Positions 3,236 to 51,702 of a stretch of DNA of 64,000 nucleotides are shown here, piece by piece (within the stretch, counting starts at the first letter, position 1; each line of letters starts with the position of its first letter). The position numbers and the translations under genes are program-made. The stretch covers positions 50,041-114,040 of the IMG/VR virus record IMGVR_UViG_3300043448_000837. The stretch is one strand, 5' to 3'. The stretch comes from a virus. The notes beneath the pieces are model-generated. The model was given only the letters and a program-made list of their open reading frames with translations. It did not search any database and had not been told where the DNA came from.

Positions 3236-3850
3236 TTACTGCGTGTATTCGCAGAGGATATCGGACTCTTGGTCAAAGGCGCAGTTGAGCAATTTTCGCA
3301 TTTGGCGGGCGACATCAAGGTCTTTACCGAGGTAAAGAGTCGTTTTCAGAAGGTCGCTGTACACAACCGGTTGCTCTTTGGTGATTTCCTCGTCATAGAA
3401 GTTGACTCGGTAAGCAACGCCATTTGATTCGCAAAGTTCGTTTATTCGCTTTGCGTGCAGAATGAAATTCTCTCCGTGACCCTTGATTCCATCATCAAGA
3501 TTCTTCATGTCGAGATAAGCGTGAAGCATCTCGTGAAGCAAGGTGCTGCGAACTTCCAGGGGATCTTTCGCAGCGTGGCGGGCGAGTTTGATTTCCCCAG
3601 TTCCTCCGTTATTTGGCTTGTAAGTCCCCCACTTAGTTCTGTAACGACCTTCCCACTTGAGACGCGGATACGAGTTCCAGGTCTCTCCGTTTTCGTCGGT
3701 GCGAGAGACAACCTTGGGGACCGGGAGTTCTCCGTTGAAATACTTCGCATTGAACTCGGCGTACAACTCGCCAAGGTCATAAATCGCGCAAGGGTTGGGG
3801 CAGAACCGTTCAAGAAACGAGTTTGAAACTACCGTTTTGAATTCCGTCAT
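3236..3850 (-). CDS. SprT-like zinc metalloprotease
   Basis: FNAKYFNGELP...TLLHEMLH...GHGENF; likely start MTEFK at 3850. Confidence 0.8.
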   Translation of the reverse strand: MTEFKTVVSNSFLERFCPNPCAIYDLGELYAEFNAKYFNGELPVPKVVSRTDENGETWNSYPRLKWEGRYRTKWGTYKPNNGGTGEIKLARHAAKDPLEVRSTLLHEMLHAYLDMKNLDDGIKGHGENFILHAKRINELCESNGVAYRVNFYDEEITKEQPVVYSDLLKTTLYLGKDLDVARQMRKLLNCAFDQESDILCEYTQ

Positions 3851-32573: not shown

Positions 32574-32599
32574 GAAAAAAGGGAGGCGTAAACCTCCCC
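32574..32599 (-). terminator. terminator of the tmRNA
   Basis: gggagg-tttacg-cctccc-tttttt. Confidence 0.7.
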
Positions 32600-32788: not shown

Positions 32789-33289
32789 TCAGCGTAATTT
32801 TCTACCTTTACGGTAATTTTCTGGGATAGGGTCACCTACCCTTATCTTCAAGTTTTTCTCCCCATTGGTAACCCACATAGTGCCGAATTGAGAATTTCTC
32901 TCCCCTTGTTGGTGTTTCATTTCAGCAAGAGTTTTTCGTCTCTTAGCTTTAGCCTCAGGAGATAGGGCAGCTTTTACGGCTAGAAGTCTATTCTTGCGTA
33001 GATTATTTAGCTGGTTCGATCTGTATTCTTCGTCGTTTTTCCACAGGAACGAAGTTCTCTCCCACATCTTCTCTAAGCCGCCGCTATTTCGAGCAAGTTG
33101 GTTAATAATTTCTTCTTTTCCAATTTCTCCTACCAATCCCTTCCACGCAATAAAATCACGTTTGTCTCCCCATAGTTGCCAGTTGCAGTAATGAAACATT
33201 GCATGTTGAGTTACCGAGACCTCGACTAGGTTTGAAAGATCATCGGTTCCCCCTTTATACTTCGGCAGAATGTGATGTTTGTGGGTCAT
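32789..33289 (-). CDS. HNH homing endonuclease
   Basis: HKHHILPKYKGGTDDLSNLV...HAMFH; same family as the intron ORF at 50708. Confidence 0.8.
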   Translation of the reverse strand: MTHKHHILPKYKGGTDDLSNLVEVSVTQHAMFHYCNWQLWGDKRDFIAWKGLVGEIGKEEIINQLARNSGGLEKMWERTSFLWKNDEEYRSNQLNNLRKNRLLAVKAALSPEAKAKRRKTLAEMKHQQGERNSQFGTMWVTNGEKNLKIRVGDPIPENYRKGRKLR

Positions 33290-33372: not shown

Positions 33373-33444
33373 TTGGCGATACTGGACTTGAACCAGTGAC
33401 TTCTTCCGTGTCAAGGAAGTACTCTACCTCTGAGTTAATCGCCC
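33373..33444 (-). tRNA. tRNA-Val(GAC)
   Basis: Loop TT-GAC-AC. Confidence 0.88.
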
Positions 33445-33447
33445 TGG

Positions 33448-33534
33448 CGGAAGATACTGGATTCGAACCAGTGGTGCCGTTACCGACACAACGGTTTAGC
33501 AAACCGTCGCCTTAAACCACTCGGCCAATCTTCC
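33448..33534 (-). tRNA. tRNA-Ser(GCU)
   Basis: Loop TT-GCT-AA, long V arm. Confidence 0.9.
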
Positions 33535-33538
33535 AAGG

Positions 33539-33612
33539 TGCCCCCTGTAGGATTCGAACCTACGACTTCCTGGTTCGAAGCCAGGCGCTCTACTCCACTG
33601 AGCTAAGAGGGC
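33539..33612 (-). tRNA. tRNA-Arg(UCG)
   Basis: Loop CT-TCG-AA. Confidence 0.88.
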
Positions 33613-33615
33613 GAA

Positions 33616-33689
33616 TGAGAGATGGTGGATTTGAACCACCGACCATAGGCATATGAGACCCGTACTCTGCCAGACTGAGCTAATCTCTC
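33616..33689 (-). tRNA. tRNA-Met(CAU), elongator-type
   Basis: Loop CT-CAT-AT. Confidence 0.85.
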
Positions 33690-33707
33690 AAATTCCCTTT
33701 CGGGAAA

Positions 33708-33788
33708 TGCCCCCAGTCGGACTTGAACCGACAAACCTTTCGGCGGCTGATTTTGAATCAGCTGTGTTTACCATTTCACCACAAGGGC
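33708..33788 (-). tRNA. tRNA-Leu(CAA)
   Basis: Loop TT-CAA-AA. Confidence 0.9.
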
Positions 33789-33792
33789 AAGG

Positions 33793-33865
33793 CACCCTCG
33801 GCAGGATTTGAACCTGCGACTAACCGCTTAGAAGGCGGATGCTCTAGCCACTGAGCTACGAGGGC
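33793..33865 (-). tRNA. tRNA-Arg(UCU)
   Basis: Loop CT-TCT-AA. Confidence 0.9.
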
Positions 33866-33868
33866 AAA

Positions 33869-33942
33869 CGCTCTCTGTAGGATTCGAACCTACGACCTTC
33901 TGATCCGTAGTCAGACGCTCTAATCCGCTGAGCTAAGAGAGC
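33869..33942 (-). tRNA. tRNA-Arg(ACG)
   Basis: Loop CT-ACG-GA. Confidence 0.9.
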
Positions 33943-33946
33943 ATGG

Positions 33947-34017
33947 CACCGAAACAAGGACTTGAACCTTGGATAACAGTTTTGGAGACTGTCGTGTTAC
34001 CACTACACTATTTCGGT
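33947..34017 (-). tRNA. tRNA-Trp(CCA)
   Basis: Loop CT-CCA-AA. Confidence 0.9.
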
Positions 34018-34037
34018 AAAGTTGCCCGTCAGGGCAA

Positions 34038-34111
34038 TGTCCGTGAGAGGACTCGAACCTCCAACAACTACCACCTCAAAGTAGCGCGTCTGCCAATTGC
34101 GCCACACGGAC
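34038..34111 (-). tRNA. tRNA-Leu(GAG), short variable loop
   Basis: Loop TT-GAG-GT, Leu-type D loop, 5-nt V region. Confidence 0.8.
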
Positions 34112-34116
34112 ATTGG

Positions 34117-34188
34117 TTCTGGAGCTAGGACTCGAACCCAGGAATGGCGGGACCAAAACCCGCTGCCTTACCACTTGGCTACTCCAGA
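34117..34188 (-). tRNA. tRNA-Gln(UUG)
   Basis: Loop TT-TTG-GT. Confidence 0.9.
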
Positions 34189-34207
34189 TTACTTGGCACG
34201 AGGCCAA

Positions 34208-34279
34208 AGTTTCGGGTCGGAATCGAACCGACGCATGAAGGTTTTGCAGACCTTCGCCTTACCACTTGGCTACCGAAAC
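34208..34279 (-). tRNA. tRNA-Cys(GCA)
   Basis: Loop CT-GCA-AA. Confidence 0.9.
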
Positions 34280-34281
34280 GG

Positions 34282-34354
34282 GGTGGTCGATGAGATTTGA
34301 ACTCACATGAACCAGATCCACAATCTGGCGCATTAACCATTATGCTACGACCAC
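34282..34354 (-). tRNA. tRNA-His(GUG)
   Basis: Loop TT-GTG-GA. Confidence 0.9.
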
Positions 34355-34356
34355 AG

Positions 34357-34441
34357 CGGAGAGGGTGGGATTCGAACCCACGGAGGCTTTCACCTCGCTA
34401 GTTTTCAAGACTAGAGCCATCAACCACTCGACCACCTCTCC
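34357..34441 (-). tRNA. tRNA-Ser(UGA)
   Basis: Loop CT-TGA-AA. Confidence 0.9.
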
Positions 34442-34445
34442 AAGG

Positions 34446-34517
34446 AGCGGATGAAGGGATTTGAACCCTCGACTTTCTCCTTGGCAAGGAGATGCTCTAC
34501 CACTGAGCTACATCCGC
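34446..34517 (-). tRNA. tRNA-Gly(GCC)
   Basis: Loop TT-GCC-AA. Confidence 0.9.
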
Positions 34518-34537
34518 GAACGTTCCCGAAGGAACGA

Positions 34538-34610
34538 TGGAGAATAGGAGACTCGAACTCCTGACATCCTGCTTGCAAAGCAGGCGCTCTACCAGCTGAG
34601 CTAATTCCCC
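34538..34610 (-). tRNA. tRNA-Ala(UGC)
   Basis: Loop TT-TGC-AA. Confidence 0.9.
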
Positions 34611-34815
34611 GAGCAGGGCGAGAGTATCTGCCTACGATTAACGACTTGCGTAAAGATTAGAACTGAGTCACGCAACTTGGTCGCCTAACCCAGACTTTGC
34701 TTTGTCGCAGTACCGTTACTTTACGATGCAGCTTACGGGACTCTTCATTTAATGCAACATTCCTCGTTGCACCCTCTTTGGCCTCCTTCCTGGCTATCTG
34801 CCAGACGAGTACCAA
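34611..34815 (-). ncRNA. candidate structured ncRNA between tRNA-Thr and tRNA-Ala
   Basis: About 200 nt with no credible ORF; hairpins ctggc/gccag, tgcaac/gttgca, ttgcgt/acgcaa. Confidence 0.5.
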
Positions 34816-34887
34816 AGCCATCACTGAGGCTTGAACTCAGGACCTCCATCTTACCAAGATGGCGCACTACCACTGTGCTATGACGGC
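34816..34887 (-). tRNA. tRNA-Thr(GGU)
   Basis: Loop TT-GGT-AA. Confidence 0.9.
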
Positions 34888-34891
34888 GAAG

Positions 34892-34973
34892 TGGGAAAGA
34901 CTGGATTTGAACCAGTGTAGGCAGAGCCAAAGGTTTTACAGACCTCCTCCTTTAACCACTCGGACACTTTCCC
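34892..34973 (-). tRNA. tRNA-Tyr(GUA)
   Basis: Loop CT-GTA-AA. Confidence 0.9.
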
Positions 34974-35227
34974 AAAATCCCCTTGCGGGGGGATTTGACG
35001 GTCTCTGCAGAGTAGATTGTCAGTTCAATACCTTCAATCACCGTCGTCCGCCCAGTTACCAGCTGGGCGGTGTAGCATTCAGTAACCCATGAGAATGCCA
35101 GCGGGGACCACTCGTATCAGGTCATTAGCCTCCCTTTTGCCTCAGGAGCTCGGCGCACGGCATACTCTCCGTACTGGAGTCGCACTTTTTGGTCAAGGCA
35201 GCAAAACTCCTTGTTGCCCGAAGGCAA
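34974..35227 (-). ncRNA. candidate structured ncRNA between tRNA-Pro and tRNA-Tyr
   Basis: About 250 nt with many hairpins (ccgcccag/ctgggcgg, gcattc/gaatgc, gacggt/accgtc). Confidence 0.5.
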
Positions 35228-35301
<74 letters not shown>

Positions 35302-36193
35302 TGATGGCCCCATTTAACACGTGAAACGCTTCAAGAACGCACAGAGGTGGGGGCTCGTGGCTTCCAGCAGGGCTCGCATATTGGCCGGTAAGAGTGTTTC
35401 ATCCAGCAGCACCAACGGCAAGACAGCCCTCAAGGAAGCACCACACATTAACGACTGTATGAGTGGCCGTGTCGGGAACTTAACGACGTATTCCATACGA
35501 CTCCGGTGTCTAGAACGGAGGGGTTGGTAGGAGGGGCGGCCTCCTGAGTGCGTCACCGCCCGCTTTTGCGTCACCCAGCCAGTGACCGGGGAGAGGCATT
35601 GCACTTCCTACGTTTGCCGGTTTTCAACCGGCCCCTGGAATGAAATCCAGGATGCTTCGTTCTCCCTTGAGCGATCCGAAGAACGCGGGACGGTGATTGC
35701 AGACCGCAGCCCGATGCTATGCCCGGACATTTCCGGACCACGCAGAGCGGGAACGCGAACCAGCGAACTGGCCGCACCACACCGACAGAGCAGTGTGGGT
35801 GGTTGGTGAGGCAGGTGTCTCTACGCTGTACTTCCACAAGTGTCTACGCTATACGTTACACAAGTGTCACGAACAGTTCAACTCCTTTTGCTTTCCTTAC
35901 CTCGGCAGGGTGCCGCTACCTCCCTTGTTGCGGCGTGTTTGTACGTTTCGTTCATCCAGGTACGTTACTAGACCTAGGACACTTTTTCTTTTCCCGCATC
36001 AAGTCGTCAGTGTCGTTAACGCTTGAGCATGGAATGGGAGTTCACCCATTCGTAACTTATTTGGGAGCCTGAACTATGACTCTTACAGGCAGTTTGGCAT
36101 TTTTCTCGCTCCCGGACTACGCAAACTGCCAAATGGCATCCGGGCACAAGCCTACTCCCCCCTCGTCTAGTAGGCATCGCATGGACGAGGGAA
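35302..36193 (-). ncRNA. ~890-nt ncRNA region made of serial pseudoknot/kissing-loop modules
   Basis: At least 7 H-type pseudoknots plus a kissing pair read by eye; flanked by tRNAs; no credible ORF. Confidence 0.65.
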
Positions 36194-36265
36194 CTGGCCC
36201 GGCAGGGATCGAACCTGCGACAACTTGATTAACAGTCAAGCGTTCTACCGCTGAACTACAGGCCA
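36194..36265 (-). tRNA. tRNA-Asn(GUU)
   Basis: Loop CT-GTT-AA. Confidence 0.9.
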
Positions 36266-36305
36266 TTGTGGGAGTGTCTTTAGGGCGCATCTCATTCCCA
36301 AAAGC

Positions 36306-36452
36306 GTACCGAGTGATGGAATCGAACTATCACCGTTCTTTCAGTGAGTTACCATCTCACCTAGGTTTCCGCAGCATTCATCTGACGACTGGTTAAGTCA
36401 ACAAATCAAATGCTCGTCCACCTGAACTACCTACCCTTAGAACTCGGCTTAT
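36306..36452 (-). ncRNA. enlarged tRNA-like RNA
   Basis: Terminal ccgag/ctcgg stem, T-loop GTTCGATTC, D-like gttc-aggtggac-gagc, large insert. Confidence 0.45.
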
Positions 36453-36474
36453 GCTGAAGTTTGCCTTACGGCAA

Positions 36475-36548
36475 TGGCGGAGGCAGGATTCGAACCTGCG
36501 ACCTCCAGGTTATGAGCCTGGCGAGCTACCGGACTGCTCTACTCCACG
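36475..36548 (-). tRNA. tRNA-Met(CAU), initiator-like
   Basis: Unpaired C1, D arm gagcagtccggtagctc, loop CT-CAT-AA. Confidence 0.85.
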
Positions 36549-36662
36549 ATTCAACCCCCAGTTGTAACAAGCGTTGCCAGCTGGACGCACTTGAAACCGG
36601 ATTTTACAACGCTAATGGCCCCAGGGGCGGTGACCGGCGTTGTGCCCACCAAAATGGGCAAA

Positions 36663-36736
36663 TGGGAACTGACGGATTTGAACCATCGACACCACGGGCT
36701 TCAACCGTGTGCTCTACCAAGCTGAGCTAAGTCCCC
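36663..36736 (-). tRNA. tRNA-Phe(GAA)
   Basis: Loop TT-GAA-GC. Confidence 0.88.
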
Positions 36737-36740
36737 GAGG

Positions 36741-36812
36741 TGGAACCGACAAGACTTGAACTTGTGACCGCTCGGTTATCAGCCGAGTGCTCTACCACTG
36801 AGCTACGGTTCC
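36741..36812 (-). tRNA. tRNA-Ile(GAU)
   Basis: Loop CT-GAT-AA. Confidence 0.9.
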
Positions 36813-36987
36813 ATGATTGGGCGGGATTGCTGCTAACTGTTACTTTCACTGACGGAAAGAACTCCCAGCAGTCCCTAACAGTTTTAGTCTTGTTTAGGAC
36901 TCCCATGCGGGCAGCTCACTTTCGTATCACTCTTGCAGAACCAAGAGGTATCAGATGAGCGGTGCAGTTTTGTGTCATGCCGGACAA
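36813..36987 (-). ncRNA. candidate structured ncRNA between tRNA-Asp and tRNA-Ile
   Basis: About 175 nt; gctca/tgagc, ctcttg/caagag, gtcct/gggac helices. Confidence 0.5.
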
Positions 36988-37059
36988 CGACCCTAACGGG
37001 ATTTGAACCCGTGATACTACCGTGACAGGGTAGCGTGATCACCGCTTCACTATAGGGTC
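36988..37059 (-). tRNA. tRNA-Asp(GUC)
   Basis: Loop CT-GTC-AC. Confidence 0.9.
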
Positions 37060-37081
37060 AAGACGAGGTTTGTAACCTCTA

Positions 37082-37153
37082 TGGGTCGTCTGAGATTCGA
37101 ACTCAGGGCCAATCGGTTAAAAGCCGAGTGCTCTACCGCTGAGCTAACGACCC
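37082..37153 (-). tRNA. tRNA-Lys(UUU)
   Basis: Loop CT-TTT-AA. Confidence 0.9.
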
Positions 37154-37554
37154 GTGGATCTCTGGCTGGGATGGTACCGCCGTCATTAACCTCCTACCCA
37201 GAGGTTACCAGAGATGTTGTTCGCTTTCGTGGGCCTGAGAACGGATTGGTTACCGCCAGGTGTACCTTTCTCGTGCGGCGCTGAAACGGATTGGTTACCG
37301 CCAACTTACCGCCTCTTGTCTTTCCGAAGGAAAGTATCAGGCGAATGGACTCTTGGCTGGGGCGATGCGTCCGTCATTAACCAGCTGTTCACTGATTACC
37401 AAGAGGCGGGCGTCCCTAGTCCCCGCGATTTGCCAGAACTGATGAAGTGGCCGGAGACCGAAGTCATAACCCACCTCTCGTTTCGAGTGCGTTTTAGCTC
37501 TTAAACTACGCTACTGAAGTAGCGGTGGGTCTGACACCACACGTTTCACTCTAA
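37154..37554 (-). ncRNA. ~400-nt ncRNA region with two duplicated RNA motifs
   Basis: 19-mer repeated at 37240 and 37285; three-way-junction motif at 37159-37213 and 37350-37405. Confidence 0.6.
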
Positions 37555-37626
37555 TAGTCCCAACGGGATTCGAACCCGTGCTACAACCTTGAAAGGGTTG
37601 TGACCTAACCGCTAGTCGATAGGACC
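37555..37626 (-). tRNA. tRNA-Glu(UUC)
   Basis: Loop CT-TTC-AA. Confidence 0.9.
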
Positions 37627-37998
37627 ATTTGAAAACCTTTGGCTCAGTTCATGCCGTGCGATTTACCCTGGACCGCATATCCAGGCACCAAAGGTTTTTG
37701 GTAATTTCTATTGAGTTTTCAAGTTTCGTGTGACCTTGGAGAAGAACCTCTTTCAACCACCCTTTTATCATAGCGCCTTTTGCGCCAGAAGTAAAGGGGT
37801 GGAAACCGCCCAGAGAGGGCGGGAAACCGTCCTAGTGACTGAAGCGTCGGCAGCGCCGACCTGGTCACGCACGGAGGTGGGTTTTTCACTTTTCAAGGTT
37901 CGGGGCGAGGCTTTCCTCAACCACCCTTTAACTATAGCGCCTTTTGCGCCAGAAGTAAAGGGGTGGAAACCGTACCGAGGGTACGGGAAACCGCCCTA

Positions 37999-38079
37999 TG
38001 CCCTCCGGGAGACTCGAACTCCCACGCACAAGGCACTGGTACCTAAAACCAGGGCGTCTACCAATTCCGCCAGGAGGGC
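37999..38079 (-). tRNA. tRNA-Leu(UAG)
   Basis: Loop TT-TAG-GT. Confidence 0.9.
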
Positions 38080-38084
38080 AAATA

Positions 38085-38184
38085 AGACTGGAATGGAATG
38101 AACGGGAATCGAACCCGTCACTGAAGAGTTCCTTCTGGAGGTTTTTCTCTCCGAGCACCGCCGAGGCACCCCACGTTCCAGTCT
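38085..38184 (-). ncRNA. tRNA-like RNA with non-canonical anticodon loop
   Basis: T arm gacgggTTCGATTcccgtt, ggag-agaaaaac-ctcc arm, outer stem agactggaa/ttccagtct. Confidence 0.6.
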
Positions 38185-38563
38185 ATCGAATTTTCAAGGT
38201 TCGGGGCGAGGCTTTCCTCAACCACCCTTTAACTATAGCGCCTTTTGCGCCAGAAGTAAAGGGGTGGAAACCGCCCAGAGAGGGCGGTAACCCGGTGGTT
38301 GTGTCCGGGTCCACACAAGAGAATCCCCGGACCGGTGACCCGCCAGCCGTAAAGCCGACGGAGCACCCAACCACCCTTTAACTATAACCCGTTTAGGGGC
38401 TCGAGTAAAGGGGGCAAACCGGCCTTTTCAGGCGGTTAACCGCCCTTTCGTCGCTCTTGCTCGTAAATATACTGCAGTCCAAGCATTGGAACAACAATTA
38501 CACCAAACCCGCAGAGTCCGAGCCAAATGGGACTGTCGGCAAGTGTGCGTACGAGGTGAAGCA

Positions 38564-39887: not shown

Positions 39888-40365
39888 TTATGATCGGTGG
39901 CTATGTTCAGGGTCACGATCAGGTTTTACCCTTTTCCGACACTCTTTGACATGCTCTGCCAACTCTTTCAGGTCGCAAATTAAAGAACCACTTTCTTCGT
40001 TGCATCCGATCACGAGGCCGCAAAGCGGGCACCGAAACTTGGATTTTATGTAATTATCTTCGAGTTTCATTTTATTTCCTATACACTTGTCGAGAATGGG
40101 CGTAAAGCTCCACCGAAACTGAATCCCCGTGCTGATGAACGGCCAGGTATTCTCTGTTCGGGTCGTAATTTGCCAGTGTTTCCGTCAACTTCTCAGCGAA
40201 TACGTCCTCGGTGTCCCTTTGAGGCAGAGAACGAAGAAACTTGAAAACTTCTTCCCAAGTCAGAAAATTGCAGGCTTCCGAGTCATAGAAGTGGCATCCT
40301 CTTTGACCGATATGTTTTTGAAAGCTACGCGAGAGGTGATTCATCTTGATACCGCATTGGAACAA
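39888..40365 (-). other. two hypothetical ORFs (39888-40070, 40072-40365)
   Basis: Tandem minus-strand ORFs. Confidence 0.55.
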
Positions 40366-44347: not shown

Positions 44348-47113
44348 TCAGTATGTTCCGCCGTCAATCGTGTTGGTCCAGGTCGGAACGTTCGACGAGT
44401 TTACAGAAAGAATTGTACCAACACCGTTTGTAGCATCCCAAGTTCCAGCGGCTGTAACTCCTGCAGCACTCGTACCGTTGCCATAGACAACGCCATTCGC
44501 TGTCAGGGACGTTAAACCAGTTCCACCGTTGGCAACGACCACAGTTCCAGTAACGTTTGCCGCAGTTCCAGTGATGTTTGAATCAGTGAAGGCAATCGTT
44601 TTGGTTGCGGTTCCGTTGTAGAACTTGATGGTTCCGGAGTTGTTCCAGGAATCTCCGCTGGCTGGGGTTGTTGGGTCAGCAACACCTGTGCCGTAGTTAA
44701 TACTGGCGGTGGCTGCAGAGGCGTTCACCAGAGTGATCTTGCCAGTCATCGTGCCGCCGCTTCTTGCCAGCGCAGCGTTGGCTAGATCGTAGGCAGTCTT
44801 GACCGAGTTCGGTGAAGCAGCAGTTGTGATCGAAGTCGAGGCGACTGAATCAGTAACCTGCAGAATACCGGCGACAGAAGTCGTGCCACCCCGGACATCT
44901 GCCGAAACAGTTCCCGTTACGCGACCGTAAGCATCAATCGTCTGGGACTGAACAAAGTTGATTCCAGCAGTTCCCGACGTGTTAGTTTGAGAAACTGTGG
45001 CAAGGTCAACTTGGTCCGAGCCGTTGATGACAGTGCGGCCTGCGGCAACGTTGACGTCAAGGGTGTTGCCTGTTTTGGTGAGACCGTTTCCAGCGGTAAT
45101 TTGGCCCGCACCCGAGAATTGAGTGAACGAGATTGAGTCTCCGGTGAAGGTTGTGTAACCCGCTCCCGAAACTCCCATCCGAATCGGAGAGTTCTGAGTT
45201 TGAACGAATCCGTTTCCGCCGTTAGTTGTACCCGACGTTACAAAGATGAAGTCACCAGGCGAGATTTCCCCAGTGGGTGCGTTGTCGAAGTCAGTCGCAC
45301 GAGTCCATACACCGTTTGCGCCGGTTCCGATCGTAGTAATCGTGTAAACGCCGTTGTACGCAGCAGTTGTGTGATCTTTGACAAGGATTCTCAGTCCTGT
45401 TGCGGCGAATGTTCCAGAACCGTCTAGGCTGTTCGGCGTTCCAGTTAGTGTTGCCCCAACACCAGGGTTACCAATAACACCGATGCTCAGACCAGTTCCG
45501 TTAGTGAGAACAGCGTTCACACCGCCATAAGTGGCCGAAACTTTAACTTGATTACTTGCCGGAACAGCCGTGACGTAATAAGTCGTGTTGGCGGTAAGAC
45601 CGGTTCCTGTTACAGTGTTACCGGTGCGAAGCTGCGAGTTAACCAGAAGACCGTGATCGGCACTGAAGGTGATTGTATCTGTGCCCGTAATCGTGGTGAT
45701 TGTGAGCGCAGTACCACCCGACACGTAGGTGTAAGAAACTGCCGTGGTAGTGGCGTAATCTGCGGCAGCGTGAACGTTTAGGCTTTGGGCAATGGCGTCA
45801 GCGTACTGCTTTGTGACGGCATCGTTGGCAGCAACAGGTGCGCCAACCAGGGTGATTCTGGCGCCGTTGACATCAACTACACCAGTACCGTTGGGAACAA
45901 GGTTGACGTTCGTGTTAGTTCCACCTGCGGTGAATGTTAGAGCGCCGGTGCCGGTGATTGAACCGGTAGTTGTTCCAGTACCGCCATTCGCAACAGCAAT
46001 CGTAGAACCGTTCCAGGTTCCCGAAGTGATCGTTCCAACGGTAGCGAGACTGGAAAGTGCTGTTACACCCGTGTCAACCAGTGTGCCGGAAGTGGGAAGC
46101 GTAACGTTGGTGTTACCTGTAACAGTCAGTGTCGTTGTGAAAGCGCCGGAAGTTGTTAGGTTCCCACCCAGCGTAATCGTTCTTGCGCCGTTGTTGACGC
46201 CGGTTCCACCATAAGTCGGGCTGACAACTGAGCCGTTCCAGGTGCCGGAGGTAATGGTTCCAACGGTTGCCAGACTGGAAAGGGATGTAACAGCGGTGTT
46301 AACTAGCGTGCCCGTGGTAGGCAGAGTTACGTTGGTCGCACCAGTTGTCGTCAGGGTTAAAGCGTTTGCGCCAGAAGTAGTGAAGTTTCCAGCGATGTCA
46401 ATGTTGCCACCCAAACTCAGGGTTCTGTTGGCATTCTCGACATCAATCGTCAGAGCGCGAGCGGCGGTCAGGGCGATAGAAGAAGTTGCACCGATTGAAA
46501 CGTCGAACGCGGCGCTGGTGTCGCGAAGCGCCAGAGTTCCGAGTCCGGTGATGCTTGTCAAACCGGCGATCGTGGTTGCTGTGCCGCCAAGCGATACGGC
46601 TGTTGAACCCAGAGTTACTGAGCTGTTGACAAGTTTGCTGTTGGGGATCGAGTTGTTTGCGACCGACAGCGAAACAGTAACGTTGCTGCCTGAAGGTTGA
46701 GTCGCAGTGGAAGACAGAATCGTTCCGTCACCTGTGATCGAGAAAGTATTACCTGTCGCAAAAGTGAAGCTTCCTGCGTTGCCGGTGACTGTGAAGGTGG
46801 AAGCAACGGCGCTAACCGCAGTGCGCACATAGGCTGTTGAAGCCGCTTTCGTACTGTTGTCCGACTGAAGTTGGGTTGGGACTGTGATTGTTCCGGTGAA
46901 GTCCTTGGTTCCTGTGATTGTTGCGTTCGCACTCAGTGAAACGAAAGCACCAGCACCACCGATGGCAATGATCGAGGTCGCGTTACCCCCTAAGTTACCT
47001 GAACCGTAGTACAGGATTGCATCATTTTCGTTAAACGCTAATTCAGCGTTAGCGAGGGCAGAGGGAGCGCCTGAAGAGCCTGCTCGCCGTTTGATTCTGA
47101 TAATGTTGGCCAT
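44348..47113 (-). CDS. long tail fibre protein
   Basis: IRIKRR N-terminus, G/T-rich repeats, DAVTKQY, WTRATD, IDGGTY end. Confidence 0.8.
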   Translation of the reverse strand: MANIIRIKRRAGSSGAPSALANAELAFNENDAILYYGSGNLGGNATSIIAIGGAGAFVSLSANATITGTKDFTGTITVPTQLQSDNSTKAASTAYVRTAVSAVASTFTVTGNAGSFTFATGNTFSITGDGTILSSTATQPSGSNVTVSLSVANNSIPNSKLVNSSVTLGSTAVSLGGTATTIAGLTSITGLGTLALRDTSAAFDVSIGATSSIALTAARALTIDVENANRTLSLGGNIDIAGNFTTSGANALTLTTTGATNVTLPTTGTLVNTAVTSLSSLATVGTITSGTWNGSVVSPTYGGTGVNNGARTITLGGNLTTSGAFTTTLTVTGNTNVTLPTSGTLVDTGVTALSSLATVGTITSGTWNGSTIAVANGGTGTTTGSITGTGALTFTAGGTNTNVNLVPNGTGVVDVNGARITLVGAPVAANDAVTKQYADAIAQSLNVHAAADYATTTAVSYTYVSGGTALTITTITGTDTITFSADHGLLVNSQLRTGNTVTGTGLTANTTYYVTAVPASNQVKVSATYGGVNAVLTNGTGLSIGVIGNPGVGATLTGTPNSLDGSGTFAATGLRILVKDHTTAAYNGVYTITTIGTGANGVWTRATDFDNAPTGEISPGDFIFVTSGTTNGGNGFVQTQNSPIRMGVSGAGYTTFTGDSISFTQFSGAGQITAGNGLTKTGNTLDVNVAAGRTVINGSDQVDLATVSQTNTSGTAGINFVQSQTIDAYGRVTGTVSADVRGGTTSVAGILQVTDSVASTSITTAASPNSVKTAYDLANAALARSGGTMTGKITLVNASAATASINYGTGVADPTTPASGDSWNNSGTIKFYNGTATKTIAFTDSNITGTAANVTGTVVVANGGTGLTSLTANGVVYGNGTSAAGVTAAGTWDATNGVGTILSVNSSNVPTWTNTIDGGTY

Positions 47114-48399
47114 TAATAGGTTCCCCCATTGGTTATGTCAAGAAGAGTGGTGTCGGTTTTCCAGAATGTGGTTGCAGAGTCGTACACAAGTGTACTTTGA
47201 TTCGTTAAGCCGGTAGTATCGACATCCGGTAAATTGTTGATGGGGACGCCACCACCTCCTGCCGCGATGTAATCTTGAACCCACTGAATCGTAACAAAAG
47301 CTAACGGGTCAGCCGGAATTGCGTAACCAGCGAGGATTGGGCCTTCAAAAGTTCCACCCTGAGTTGTAACCATTTCCTGGGGGTACGGTACAACGGAAAT
47401 CCACTGACCCCCGTTAACGTCAACATACCACATATTCAGGTTGCTGGTTTCGGCGTCGTACCAGAAATCCCCGGGAGAGGGGTTCGGTGGCGGCGAAGAG
47501 CTGATGGTTGTTCTTGTGCATTCGGATGGATTTGAAGTCACTTCGGTCAGCGTGATCCAGGCGTCCGGGGCACCAGAATTATCTCGAAGGTACAAGACGT
47601 TTTGAATCGTGTTGTACCAGAGGGCACCGTTCACAGGGTTGGCTGGTTCAGTGGCACTAATGAGAACCGGTGGGGGAGCCCTTCCCGGTTCGGGAGTAAT
47701 TGCAATCCACACACCACCTTGTGGACCTAGAGTCCAAATCTTGAGCAGGTCGCTTACGGTATCGTACCAAAGGTAGCCAACCAGAGGATTAACCGGCGGA
47801 GTGACACTTACGAAAACAGGACTTTCCTCCTCAGGGATCCCTTGAGAAATGAGAATCCAGCTCGATGTGCCAAATGGAGCCTCTTTCCAAACTTTTAACT
47901 CGTTTGTGTTATCGTTGAACCATAGTGCACCTTGTTGCGGATCGGGCGGAGGTGAAACGCTAACCGTAACTAAGTCGCAACAAGACGTTGAAGAGGAGGC
48001 AGCATTTTCCCAGGTGTTGCCTCCGGGGGTGCTGACGCGAACCTTCAATACCCTTTCAAGGAGGTCAAACCACAGGAAACCTGGCTCCGCATTCTGAGGT
48101 GCAGAAGAACTGATCAGAACCGGCGGCTCTGGCGTAGGGATTGATGACGTGATGTCAATCCAACGAGGGGCTGTTTCCCCATTCAAAAATCCCCAAATCT
48201 TCAGAGTTTCGTCAAGTGTGTCGTACCACAATGCCCCCTGTAAAGGGTTCTTGGGTGCGGCGGCACTAAAATATACGGGTGCTGAGGAAGATGTCGGAAC
48301 GTTTACAGCAAGCCACTGAGTCCCTGTCCACTTCCAGGATCTTCCGTTAAACGTATATACTTGGCCGAGAGTGGGATTTGATGGAAAATTGTATGCCAT
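47113..48399 (-). CDS. tail fibre / virion protein with PP..G.LW(Y/F)D repeats
   Basis: NFPSNPTLGQVY N-terminus; six repeats. Confidence 0.75.
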   Translation of the reverse strand: MAYNFPSNPTLGQVYTFNGRSWKWTGTQWLAVNVPTSSSAPVYFSAAAPKNPLQGALWYDTLDETLKIWGFLNGETAPRWIDITSSIPTPEPPVLISSSAPQNAEPGFLWFDLLERVLKVRVSTPGGNTWENAASSSTSCCDLVTVSVSPPPDPQQGALWFNDNTNELKVWKEAPFGTSSWILISQGIPEEESPVFVSVTPPVNPLVGYLWYDTVSDLLKIWTLGPQGGVWIAITPEPGRAPPPVLISATEPANPVNGALWYNTIQNVLYLRDNSGAPDAWITLTEVTSNPSECTRTTISSSPPPNPSPGDFWYDAETSNLNMWYVDVNGGQWISVVPYPQEMVTTQGGTFEGPILAGYAIPADPLAFVTIQWVQDYIAAGGGGVPINNLPDVDTTGLTNQSTLVYDSATTFWKTDTTLLDITNGGTY

Positions 48400-49823: not shown

Positions 49824-51702
49824 TCAGCCGATCGAGGGAGCGGTGAGGGCTACAGGTGTGAAGTCAACAGAAGCGAGGTCCAACGGAAAATTGTGGGCAT
49901 TTCTTTCGTGAGCTACTTCAAAACCAAGATTAGCACGATTCAGAATGTCAGCCCAAGTTGGAATAACACGATTCTGGCTATCAACCAAAGATTGGTTGAA
50001 GTTGAAGCCGTTTAGGTTGAAGGCCATGGTCGAGACGCCTAGCGCCGCGAACCATATTCCGACCACAGGCCAAGCAGCAAGAAAGAAATGAAGAGAACGG
50101 CTATTATTGAAGGATGCATACTGGAAGATCAAACGACCGAAGTAGCCATGGGCTGCAACAATGTTATAGGTTTCTTCTTCTTGTCCGAACTTGTATCCGT
50201 AGTTCTGGGAAATGTCCTCGGTCGTTTCACGAATCAGGCTGGAAGTCACCAGCGAACCGTGCATAGCACTGAACAAAGAACCACCAAAAACACCTGCAAC
50301 ACCCAGCATGTGGAAAGGGTGCATTAGAATGTTGTGCTCAGCTTGGAAAACGAGCATGTAGTTGAAGGTTCCGCTGATTCCGAGTGGCATACCATCGGAG
50401 AATGAACCTTGTCCGAAAGGATAAACCAGGAAAACGGCGGTTGCTGCTGCTACCGGAGCAGAGTAAGCAACAAAAATCCAAGGACGCATACCCAGGCGGT
50501 AGCTAAGCTCCCATTCACGGCCCATGTAGCAAAAAACGCCGAGAAGGAAGTGGAAGACGGTAAGTTGGTAAGGGCCACCGTTGTAGCAGGGTGGCATCCA
50601 CTTGTTTCCAAGTGGCGTGGACTATATCATCACTCTCACGAGTGTCGGGCGCTAATGTCGTATTACGAGTCACGCTTGACTCACCGACTAGTCTCTGAAC
50701 CTTCCGCTCAAGCGTGAGCGGCTTGGCTGCTGATTGCCATACTAATGGAACACGTAACCCCGTTGTGAATAAGGCGTTCCCCGATGGGTAACTTAGCCAG
50801 GTGGGCGGTTGACACCTTGACACCAAAGGCTTCCTCAATCATTTCTGCCACTTGACTGTAATCGACACCGGGTTCGGCAACGATTGTTCCGAGTTTCTTT
50901 CCGATCTTTCGTTCGGTAATCTTCTCGTGAACGTGGAAGTGGCGCTCCCATTTCCTACTGTCAAATACAGATTGGCGAGAGTTTCTCTTATTTTTTCCTC
51001 GATTATCGTCATTCCAGGTGGAGAGTTTTCTTCCTATGGCTTGACGAGTTTCCCGAGGTTGCTTAAGAGCGGCTTCTCGGAGTTGGCCGCTTTCTTTAGC
51101 GGCTTTACCACCTTTCTTCCCAGCAAAGGAAAGAATCAGCTCAACGATTTCCTCCTTGTTTATCGCACCGGACAAAGCCTTGTAAGCGATTCGGTCACCC
51201 TCGCTGCCCCAAAGTTGCCAGTTGGCGTAGTGGAACATTGCGTGACGAGTAACACTAATACCCTTAACAATGTTGGAAGGGTCGTCGGAGCCGCCGAGAT
51301 GTCTAGGTAGTAAATGGTGATTGTGTTTCATTTTCAGGTTTCCAGCAGTTCACCCGATTTATAGTGGCCCTACAGGCTGAGCCACTCATCCAAGGAAGCA
51401 GCTTCCCAGATAGGGTAGAAGTGCAGGCCAATAGCGTTACTGGACGGCACAACAGCGCCAGAAATGATGTTGTTCCCATACAGGAGAGAACCAGCGACTG
51501 GTTCACGAATTCCGTCGATATCGACAGGAGGAGCGGCGACGAACGCGACAATGAAGCAAATAGTTGCGGCAAGCAACGTCGGGATCATCAGTGTACCAAA
51601 CCAACCTACGTAGAGGCGGTTATTGGTTGAAGTCACCCATTGGCAGAAAGACTCCCAGGAATCAGCGAGGGGAGAACGACGAGTTAAAACAGAAGCGGTC
51701 AT
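49824..51702 (-). CDS. psbA: Photosystem II D1; exon 1 51702-51380, exon 2 50586-49824 (361 aa spliced)
   Basis: Canonical D1 sequence; splicing restores DEWL-YNGGPYQ; E130 (MGREWE). Confidence 0.97.
50587..51379 (-). mobile_element. Group I intron (793 nt) in psbA
   Basis: 5' splice site after U with P1 gtggct/gggccac; P10 tgtag/ctaca; core GAACTGCTGGAA, AATCAGCAGCCAAG, TTCAGAGACTA, GATATAGTCC; terminal G. Confidence 0.92.
50708..51331 (-). CDS. intron-encoded HNH homing endonuclease
   Basis: [18 protein letters not shown]...HAMFH. Confidence 0.85.
   Translation of the reverse strand: MKHNHHLLPRHLGGSDDPSNIVKGISVTRHAMFHYANWQLWGSEGDRIAYKALSGAINKEEIVELILSFAGKKGGKAAKESGQLREAALKQPRETRQAIGRKLSTWNDDNRGKNKRNSRQSVFDSRKWERHFHVHEKITERKIGKKLGTIVAEPGVDYSQVAEMIEEAFGVKVSTAHLAKLPIGERLIHNGVTCSISMAISSQAAHA

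Follow-up and report, generated by a model that had tools for sequence, protein, structure and literature searches.

Host-type boxA motifs in the leaders of a cyanophage tRNA operon and their possible use of the host elongation machinery

Background

Arrays of tRNA genes are common in large phages, and the efficient transcription of such long untranslated units has hardly been studied. How it might be achieved is the question raised by a locus in a 64,000-nucleotide stretch of viral DNA (IMG/VR record IMGVR_UViG_3300043448_000837, positions 50,041 to 114,040; this whole stretch is referred to below as the window, and all coordinates are those of the window). Four stem-loop and sigma-70-like promoter cassettes, designated P1 to P4, are located there on the minus strand between 38445 and 37754, ahead of a long series of tRNA and small RNA genes. 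The transcripts predicted to start at P2, P3 and P4 carry, directly behind a 5' hairpin, the 12-mer GAACCTTGAAAA or a variant of it, and the literature gives GAACCTTGAAAA as the boxA found in the 16S-23S spacers of cyanobacteria (PMC8461337).

In Escherichia coli the rRNA (rrn) operons contain a boxB-boxA-boxC module just after the promoter and again before the 23S gene, with boxA being both required for antitermination and enough to bring it about; the NusB-S10 pair binds boxA and together with NusA, NusG, SuhB and S4 makes up a processive complex, which may in addition act as a chaperone of RNA folding (PMC10250234). CRISPR arrays are likewise preceded by boxA elements (Stringer et al., cited in PMC7862264).

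In this work we have analyzed the leaders of the locus and their relatives in other phage and bacterial sequences. We propose, with a probability of about 60%, that the phage borrows the Nus-factor elongation machinery of its host by means of boxA leaders, a reading that rests on sequence comparison.

boxA leaders of the P2, P3 and P4 transcripts

The original prediction had described four cassette promoters within about 700 bp, each starting its transcript with AAAGGGTGGTTG, a gagg-aaag-cctc hairpin followed by GAACCTTGAAAA behind two of them and GAAACTTGAAAA behind a third. The promoters, the four exact copies of AAAGGGTGGTTG and the hairpins and boxes were all found at the positions then given, on the minus strand (Table 1). 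Transcription starts were predicted from the promoter sequence; boxA of P2 and P3 lies about 28-39 nt past the predicted start, and no boxA motif follows P1.

The P2 and P3 leaders share the hairpin GAGG-AAAG-CCTC and are parts of a 104-nt direct repeat (92% identity) which ends exactly at the final base of boxA, so that the two copies count as one event. The P4 leader is a diverged copy in which both the hairpin (GAGG-TTCT-TCTC) and the spacer are unlike those of P2 and P3, and its box GAAACTTGAAAA agrees with GAACCTTGAAAA in 11 of 12 bases. In a divergent relative (L318) the -10 motif, hairpin and spacer are unlike those of P4, yet not one base of the 16-nt block ACGAAACTTGAAAACT has changed, and downstream of boxA both the folded RNA and tRNA-Glu are conserved as well. 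The box has thus been kept in phage leaders that otherwise diverged.

The boxA is A/U-rich and predicted to be single-stranded beside the 5' hairpin, and about 8-20 nt past each of the three boxes a local stem begins that encloses an RNA of 70-100 nt. Over 18 kb no long-range complement to the 45 nt after each box is prominent: the highest-scoring RNAduplex matches reach z of about -3 to -3.7 among some 1800 windows, and the best contiguous helices, with G-U pairs tolerated, are 12-16 nt long. Neither a boxC nor a long-range leader-trailer helix was found after boxA in this 18-kb search.

Two further boxA-like sites in the window were judged incidental. One (40236-40247, plus strand) is antisense in a minus-strand open reading frame (ORF). 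The other, AAACCTTGAAAA at 48432-48421 (minus strand), follows a terminator and precedes by 22 nt the ORF 47113-48399, a structural gene; it is retained in near-identical relatives, which is uninformative.

The motif in cyanobacterial rRNA operons

For comparison, a sample of cyanobacterial rrn operons was assembled from metagenome contigs anchored by a cyanobacterial 16S signature, the box itself not being used. A box of the GAACCTTGAAAA type with at most one mismatch is present in 33 of the 38 spacers, always directly before CTGCATA(G); exact GAACCTTGAAAA accounts for 14/38 and GAACCTTGACAA for 13/38. Contigs with the latter, or C variant, group tightly by their 16S sequences (at least 95% identity), in a cluster matching the picocyanobacterial primer Picocya-boxA-R (PMC9769826), although one contig of the same cluster (L168) has exact GAACCTTGAAAA, the A variant. 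The phage motif and the usual picocyanobacterial GAACCTTGACAA are equal in 11 of 12 bases and differ at position 10.

Among 16S leaders of at least 350 nt, a box of the GAACC(T/A)(T/A)GAAAA type was found in 11 of 77, and also in one shorter leader (L149), at a distance of 114-293 nt from the 16S gene (114-180 nt in 10 of the 11). Exact GAACCTTGAAAA occurs in four leaders, three of at least 350 nt and the short L149. Several of the 16S leaders present a TATATT-like -10 motif, a hairpin, C-rich bases, boxA, four bases and then ATAGTTTGAAAG. The P2 (…AAAATTCGATAG) and P4 (…AAAACTCAATAG) leaders of the phage have this layout of non-picocyanobacterial 16S leaders, ATAG included, and the box stands, as the original prediction had it, in the predicted leader, past a hairpin and before genes that are not translated. 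The identification of GAACCTTGAAAA as the cyanobacterial rrn boxA therefore needs a division: it agrees with the literature (PMC8461337) and with the 16S-anchored sample for cyanobacteria in general, whereas in picocyanobacteria the spacers mostly contain GAACCTTGACAA and the 16S leaders a different box.

Related leaders in other phage genomes

The motif CCGAACCTTGAAAA has 116 matches in IMG/VR; ATAG or a tRNA gene stands beside it in only 10, and most of the matches appear to be due to chance. In several unrelated contigs a -10 motif, a hairpin and the exact box are followed by a tRNA array beginning 22-27 nt later. About 12 distinct versions of the leader could be recognized, with hairpins of differing sequence placed directly 5' of the box, within a few nt of it.

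IMG/VR was also scanned with the 5' hairpin GTGGTTGAGAGACCAC, without use of boxA, which gave at least 120 matches. The matches listed comprise 91 unique contexts, nearly all of them 5-8 nt after a -10 motif, and these fall into three groups. Type A (38 of 91) has G[CA]AC[CA]T[TCA]GA[CA]AA within 22 nt, most commonly as GCACCTTGACAA, and then an array whose first gene is tRNA-Lys. Type B (30 of 91) has another structured leader (TGCGGTGACCCCC…GGCGATAGGAAC) and no box, and its next gene is mostly tRNA-Arg. The remaining 23 contexts, several of which run into protein genes, have no box either. Among the matches listed the boxA core is thus present in 38 of the 61 hairpin-retrieved leaders other than type B and absent from those entering protein genes. 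A random 12-mer would fit the type-A pattern with a chance of about 1.4e-6, which is no formal p-value because the leaders are mutually related.

All scans together yielded at least 71 motif sites, in at least 70 loci, at which a 12-mer of the boxA family lies 10-24 nt before the first tRNA; among the matches listed this is tRNA-Lys at 68 of 71 sites, and most of the related leaders have one boxA. Either psbA or psbD is encoded in 11 of 17 leader-bearing contigs, including both complete genomes (247 and 258 kb), and one contig (L258) contains a cyanobacterial transfer-messenger RNA (tmRNA). The window leaders share TAAAGGGTGGTTGAG with the hairpin-led family, with the hairpin remodelled. By these comparisons the same layout, consisting of a -10 motif, a 5' hairpin, a boxA-family 12-mer and a first tRNA 10-24 nt further on, heads tRNA arrays in many other cyanophage contigs.

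The 5' hairpin had been labelled boxB. Since transcripts may begin with it whether or not boxA follows, it is probably rather a stabiliser of the 5' end or a start-site element, general to cyanophage transcripts, than a specific boxB, and the label holds as a positional analogy only. The hairpin is absent from five marine Kyanoviridae isolates. A blastn search of GenBank phages with the 79-nt leader returned no match, a match this short being unable to pass the E-value limit, and a scan of genome contigs with the -10 and start motif gave chance matches only, in unrelated metagenome-assembled genomes. In S-CREM1 (OP535465.1, 41608-41623) a hairpin with compensatory changes, GCGGTTGAGAGACCGC, lies 4 nt before tRNA-Leu, without boxA.

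The position of the 12-mer in these leaders might suggest a role other than Nus loading, namely that of an RNA-processing or stability signal, or of a DNA site for a regulator (RNase E entry and trimming of the leader of the first tRNA being examples). An A/U-rich, apparently unpaired motif beside a 5' hairpin, found in at least 70 phage leaders just where the leader is removed anyway, would suit such a function, as would the lack of the Rho target in cyanobacteria. Its conserved core, however, equals that of host rrn leaders and spacers, in which the distances to promoter and mature end are very different; RNase P requires no such box, and among the matches listed the hairpin-led mRNA leaders do not contain it. 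We regard this explanation as unlikely and continue with borrowing of host Nus factors as the preferred one.

The promoter cassette family

The cassettes of the locus are four copies of a 74-nt unit (38441-38368, 38292-38219, 37991-37918 and 37827-37754; 70-100% identity), in which a GC-rich stem-loop, TTT, the -35 motif TTTACT, a 17-nt spacer with its own small hairpin, the -10 motif TATAGT (TATGAT in the fourth) and AAAGGGTGGTTG follow each other on the minus strand. Exact AAAGGGTGGTTG is present at 38379-38368, 38230-38219, 37929-37918 and 37765-37754, i.e. in 4 copies in the 64 kb; a search tolerating one mismatch gives 5 matches where 0.42 would be expected, and no shuffle reached 5.

In the whole 114-kb record 17 cassettes match the pattern, all on one strand. 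None of the 13 outside the RNA operon has boxA within 75 nt, compared with three of the four in the operon (Fisher exact p = 0.006). In several of the 13 an ATG lies about 7 nt after the -10 motif, which predicts leaderless mRNAs. Two relatives (L122 and L123; about 98% identity) are without exactly 301 bp between two cassette copies, and the missing module comprises P2, its boxA leader, the tRNA-shaped RNA and tRNA-Leu. Judged by their sequences, the cassettes form a family of PeSL-like type, recombination between the copies being the way in which modules are gained and lost among relatives. The rrn-like tandem-promoter design that had been proposed for the locus was not borne out, because its promoters are mobile copies of a genome-wide cassette and do not form an arrangement of the rrn P1-P2 kind.

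Such mobility raises the possibility that the boxes are passive hitch-hikers, a piece of a host rrn operon captured once, multiplied with the cassette and left unused. The 92% identity of the P2 and P3 copies and the end of their repeat at the last base of boxA are what this would predict, cassettes do come and go among relatives, and phage tRNA arrays without boxA exist. Against it, the flanks of the box have diverged and the box itself has not, as is seen between P3 and P4 and again in L318; a boxA-family core persists over dozens of leaders with different promoters and hairpins, and its position is constant with respect to the transcript start and the first tRNA. We hold passive carriage to be distinctly improbable. 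That boxA leaders behind rrn-like tandem promoters chiefly draw Nus factors away from host rRNA synthesis is hardly credible: three such leaders within 500 bp, behind consensus-like promoters and if highly transcribed, could in principle compete for NusB, but the promoters belong to a 17-member family serving mostly protein genes, copy number varies between near-identical phages, and most related leaders among the matches listed have a single boxA.

The operon and the likely host group

The window is the final 64 kb of the 114-kb record, the completeness of which is estimated at about 51%. Its minus strand contains 32 tRNA genes, 27 of them between 38080 and 33373. On balance, the region appears to control a cyanophage operon that encodes tRNAs and small RNAs and extends from about 38380 to 32580 (minus strand, about 5.8 kb, 27 tRNA genes). 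The first canonical intrinsic terminator downstream (Table 1) is the likely end of the unit.

On its gene content the virus is a cyanophage, since psbA is present in the window, the record encodes a cyanobacterial-type SLH-OprB porin with about 80% identity to many cellular proteins, and a relative at 98% identity likewise has psbA. Picocyanobacteria are the likely host group; the phage tRNA-Ala gave no discrimination between host clades.

Proposed mechanism and points that weigh against it

The sequences establish that the box is there, where it stands, that it is conserved and that it goes with RNA operons; we infer from the leaders that boxA RNA would bind Nus factors and permit read-through. 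In the proposed sequence of events, nascent boxA RNA would be bound by host NusB-S10 (NusE) on polymerases started at P2, P3 and P4. With NusA and NusG added, RNA polymerase would become an elongation complex of the rrn type, resistant to pauses and terminators, and could run through both downstream cassette stem-loops (37986-37970 and 37822-37806) and past the hairpins of the tRNAs as far as the terminator at 32599-32580; the complex may also assist folding of the RNA. Because cyanobacteria are without Rho, the benefit would lie in processivity, in speed, in resistance to intrinsic termination or in the chaperoning of RNA rather than in protection from Rho. The factors would be supplied by the host: NusB and NusG profiles match the Synechococcus elongatus control genome, and a profile search of the 114-kb fragment gave no phage-encoded NusB or NusG. 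S10 is, to our knowledge, universal.

Several observations weigh against this mechanism. The first concern Rho, the classical target of antitermination: two papers report cyanobacteria to be without it, and the Rho RNA-binding domain has no match in the Synechococcus elongatus control, whereas it matches 9 of 9 other bacterial controls. Within the operon, the cassette stem-loops consist of a 6-bp GC stem and UUU only and were not called by the consensus terminator scan, which found no canonical terminator inside the tRNA array. As to the box itself, GAACCTTGACAA and not GAACCTTGAAAA is present in 11 of the 12 sampled spacers of picocyanobacteria, the likely host group. Their 16S leaders (L136, L162, L196, L199, L221, L227 and L168) have a conserved GCACTCTTTGAAC-like element, which differs from the GAACCTTGA(A/C)AA of their own spacers and seems to resemble the E. 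coli boxA; moreover, the boxA function in cyanobacteria is itself assigned by homology. With P2 and P3 being duplicates and the closest relatives 98% identical, independent support within the lineage comes from P4 and L318 only. Finally, not every array is led by the motif: type-B leaders are without boxA, as are the tRNA arrays of S-CRM01, S-CREM1 and S-CBWM1, in which the few 12-mer matches all lie within coding genes.

Relation to known systems

The T4 tRNA cluster resembles the present operon in that tRNAs and small stable RNAs arise from one transcription unit, with processing by RNases of the host; we know of no boxA-type leader described for it. With the rrn antitermination leader the phage leaders have in common the boxA of the host phylum just past the promoter and after a hairpin, in the order boxB-then-boxA, as well as a long untranslated and highly structured transcript including tRNAs, and the ATAG four bases after boxA known from the non-picocyanobacterial 16S leaders. 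They differ in preceding phage tRNAs and small RNAs and not rRNA, in the generic phage 5' hairpin, in a host without Rho and in having no boxC or leader-trailer helix within the 18 kb searched.

The lambda nut site (boxA-boxB with N protein) is another case of a phage placing a host-type boxA in a promoter-proximal leader for the processivity of RNA polymerase. A nut site of the lambda type was nevertheless rejected for the window, since here the hairpin precedes boxA, the reverse of the lambda order; the operon, in addition, is one of untranslated RNA instead of delayed-early genes, and its box copies the host rrn version. No N-like protein is known for this phage, no search aimed at one having been made. 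The boxA of CRISPR arrays likewise stands before a long series of repeated, untranslated units and serves the expression of the distal ones; the proposed target there is Rho, absent from cyanobacteria, while the genes here are viral tRNA genes (PMC7862264).

T4-type phages have PeSL cassettes with stem-loops that terminate transcription effectively (Arbiol et al. 2010, PMC2839356). In these, a repeated unit of stem-loop and sigma-70-like promoter likewise bounds small modules, and relatives differ by exact gain or loss of a module between copies, here the 301-bp module from P2 to tRNA-Leu. Unlike PeSLs, three copies of the window have gained a leader with hairpin and boxA, and the genes behind them are RNA genes; their sequence is unrelated to the RB49 and phi1 PeSLs, and the terminator activity of their stem-loops is putative.

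A literature search on boxA in cyanophage tRNA operons found no relevant paper. boxA-led processive transcription of untranslated arrays is already known, and what is new is a boxA of the host rrn type heading phage tRNA operons in a host without Rho. That the capture of the host rRNA elongation complex by an rrn-type boxA is a general strategy of cyanophages for tRNA and non-coding-RNA operons can be suggested tentatively, and we consider it somewhat less likely than not. Phage tRNA operons would join lambdoid nut sites, rRNA operons and CRISPR arrays as sites of Nus-factor antitermination, and a host-type boxA at the head of an array offers a concrete and testable mechanism. As the host phylum is without Rho, the action of boxA here would be its Rho-independent part, which is hard to isolate in E. 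coli; if the proposal is true, it would expose this core function of Nus and boxA, whether this lies in speed, in the suppression of pauses, in resistance to intrinsic terminators or in the folding of RNA during transcription. The boxA variant of a phage (A or C at position 10, GA or GC start) would then track that of its host and possibly serve as a marker for host prediction. The conserved 5' hairpin and boxA leader may also help to locate where transcripts begin in the genomes of uncultured cyanophages, and it could serve as a part for the expression of RNA arrays in cyanobacteria.

Other features of the region

The coordinates of the leaders, promoters and RNAs are collected in Table 1.

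Table 1 Features of the boxA-led tRNA operon and its control region, in the direction of transcription
Feature	Position	Strand	Description	Basis
Cassette P1	38381..38445	-	Stem-loop GGCGG-TTAA-CCGCC (38444-38431), -35 TTTACT (38409-38404), -10 TATAGT (38386-38381)	
P1 RNA	38268..38379	-	Y-shaped, about 110 nt, without boxA; 3' stem-loop CCGCCCTCTCTGGGCGG (38287-38271) and TTT	Folding
Promoter P2	38232..38260	-	TTTACT-17-TATAGT	
P2 leader	38191..38230	-	AAAGGGTGGTTG; hairpin GAGGAAAGCCTC (38218-38207); CCCC; boxA GAACCTTGAAAA (38202-38191); then TTCG-ATAG	
tRNA-shaped RNA	38085..38184	-	Closing stem AGACTGGAA/TTCCAGTCT; T-arm of tRNA type	
tRNA-Leu(TAG)	37998..38080	-		
Cassette stem-loop	37970..37986	-	CCGTACCCTCGGTACGG, then TTT	
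Promoter P3	37931..37959	-	TTTACT-17-TATAGT	
P3 leader	37890..37929	-	Hairpin as in P2 (37917-37906); CCCC; boxA GAACCTTGAAAA (37901-37890)	
Cassette stem-loop	37806..37822	-	CCGCCCTCTCTGGGCGG, then TTT; in the path of P3 transcripts	
Promoter P4	37767..37795	-	TTTACT-17-TATGAT	
P4 leader	37716..37765	-	AAAGGGTGGTTG; hairpin GAGGTTCTTCTC (37750-37739); boxA variant GAAACTTGAAAA (37727-37716); then CTCA-ATAG	
Conserved folded RNA	37632..37698	-	Stem AAAACCTTTGG/CCAAAGGTTTT; between P4 boxA and tRNA-Glu	
Operon body	33373..37627	-	26 tRNA genes (tRNA-Glu to tRNA-Val) and folded RNA spacers	
Intrinsic terminator	32580..32599	-	First canonical one downstream; 8-bp stem, then six T; after the HNH ORF 32789-33289	Terminator scan

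The stem-loop of cassette P1 (38444-38431) contains the stop codon of a small ORF located upstream. The P1 RNA, the 5' GGGTGGTTG of which pairs with CAACCACC, folds with a minimum free energy of -69.2 kcal/mol (z -5.3), equalled by none of 200 shuffles. The tRNA-shaped RNA (38184-38085, about 100 nt) has an acceptor-like stem of 8 bp and is called by ARAGORN at a relaxed threshold only, with a four-base 'aaaa' anticodon. No Rfam family corresponds to the leader, to the P1 RNA or to the tRNA-shaped RNA.

Next to the end of the operon, the segment 32555-32772 (minus strand) gives sub-threshold matches to a permuted tmRNA, with a promoter and a terminator at 32599-32565; the -35 motif of the promoter for this putative tmRNA sits in the loop of the tRNA-operon terminator. 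Elsewhere in IMG/VR, five contexts (L095, L104, L108, L111 and L114) show a -10 motif, a hairpin, CCGAACCTTGAAAA, four bases and ATAG, like a cyanobacterial rrn leader; no tRNA was found within 600 nt in any of them and no Rfam family at the gathering score in L095, L104, L108 and L114. The transcripts headed by the hairpin GTGGTTGAGAGACCAC are those of loci L388-L505 (for example L397, L404 and L419), and copies of abiF RNA (RF03085) lie within boxA-led phage tRNA arrays of L003, L308 and L353.

The window also encodes (3269-3838, minus strand) a homologue, with 49% identity, of S-CBWM1 gp6. The latter is annotated as 'putative transcription elongation protein', and it was set aside as a candidate, its Pfam match being solely SprT-like. 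The psbA gene (49926-51615, minus strand) is split: Photo_RC matches cover 49926-50597 and 51403-51615, and the approximately 800 bp between them hold the ORF 50708-51331. The insert probably represents an intron carrying a homing endonuclease, which is how the psbA of S-CBWM1 is annotated.

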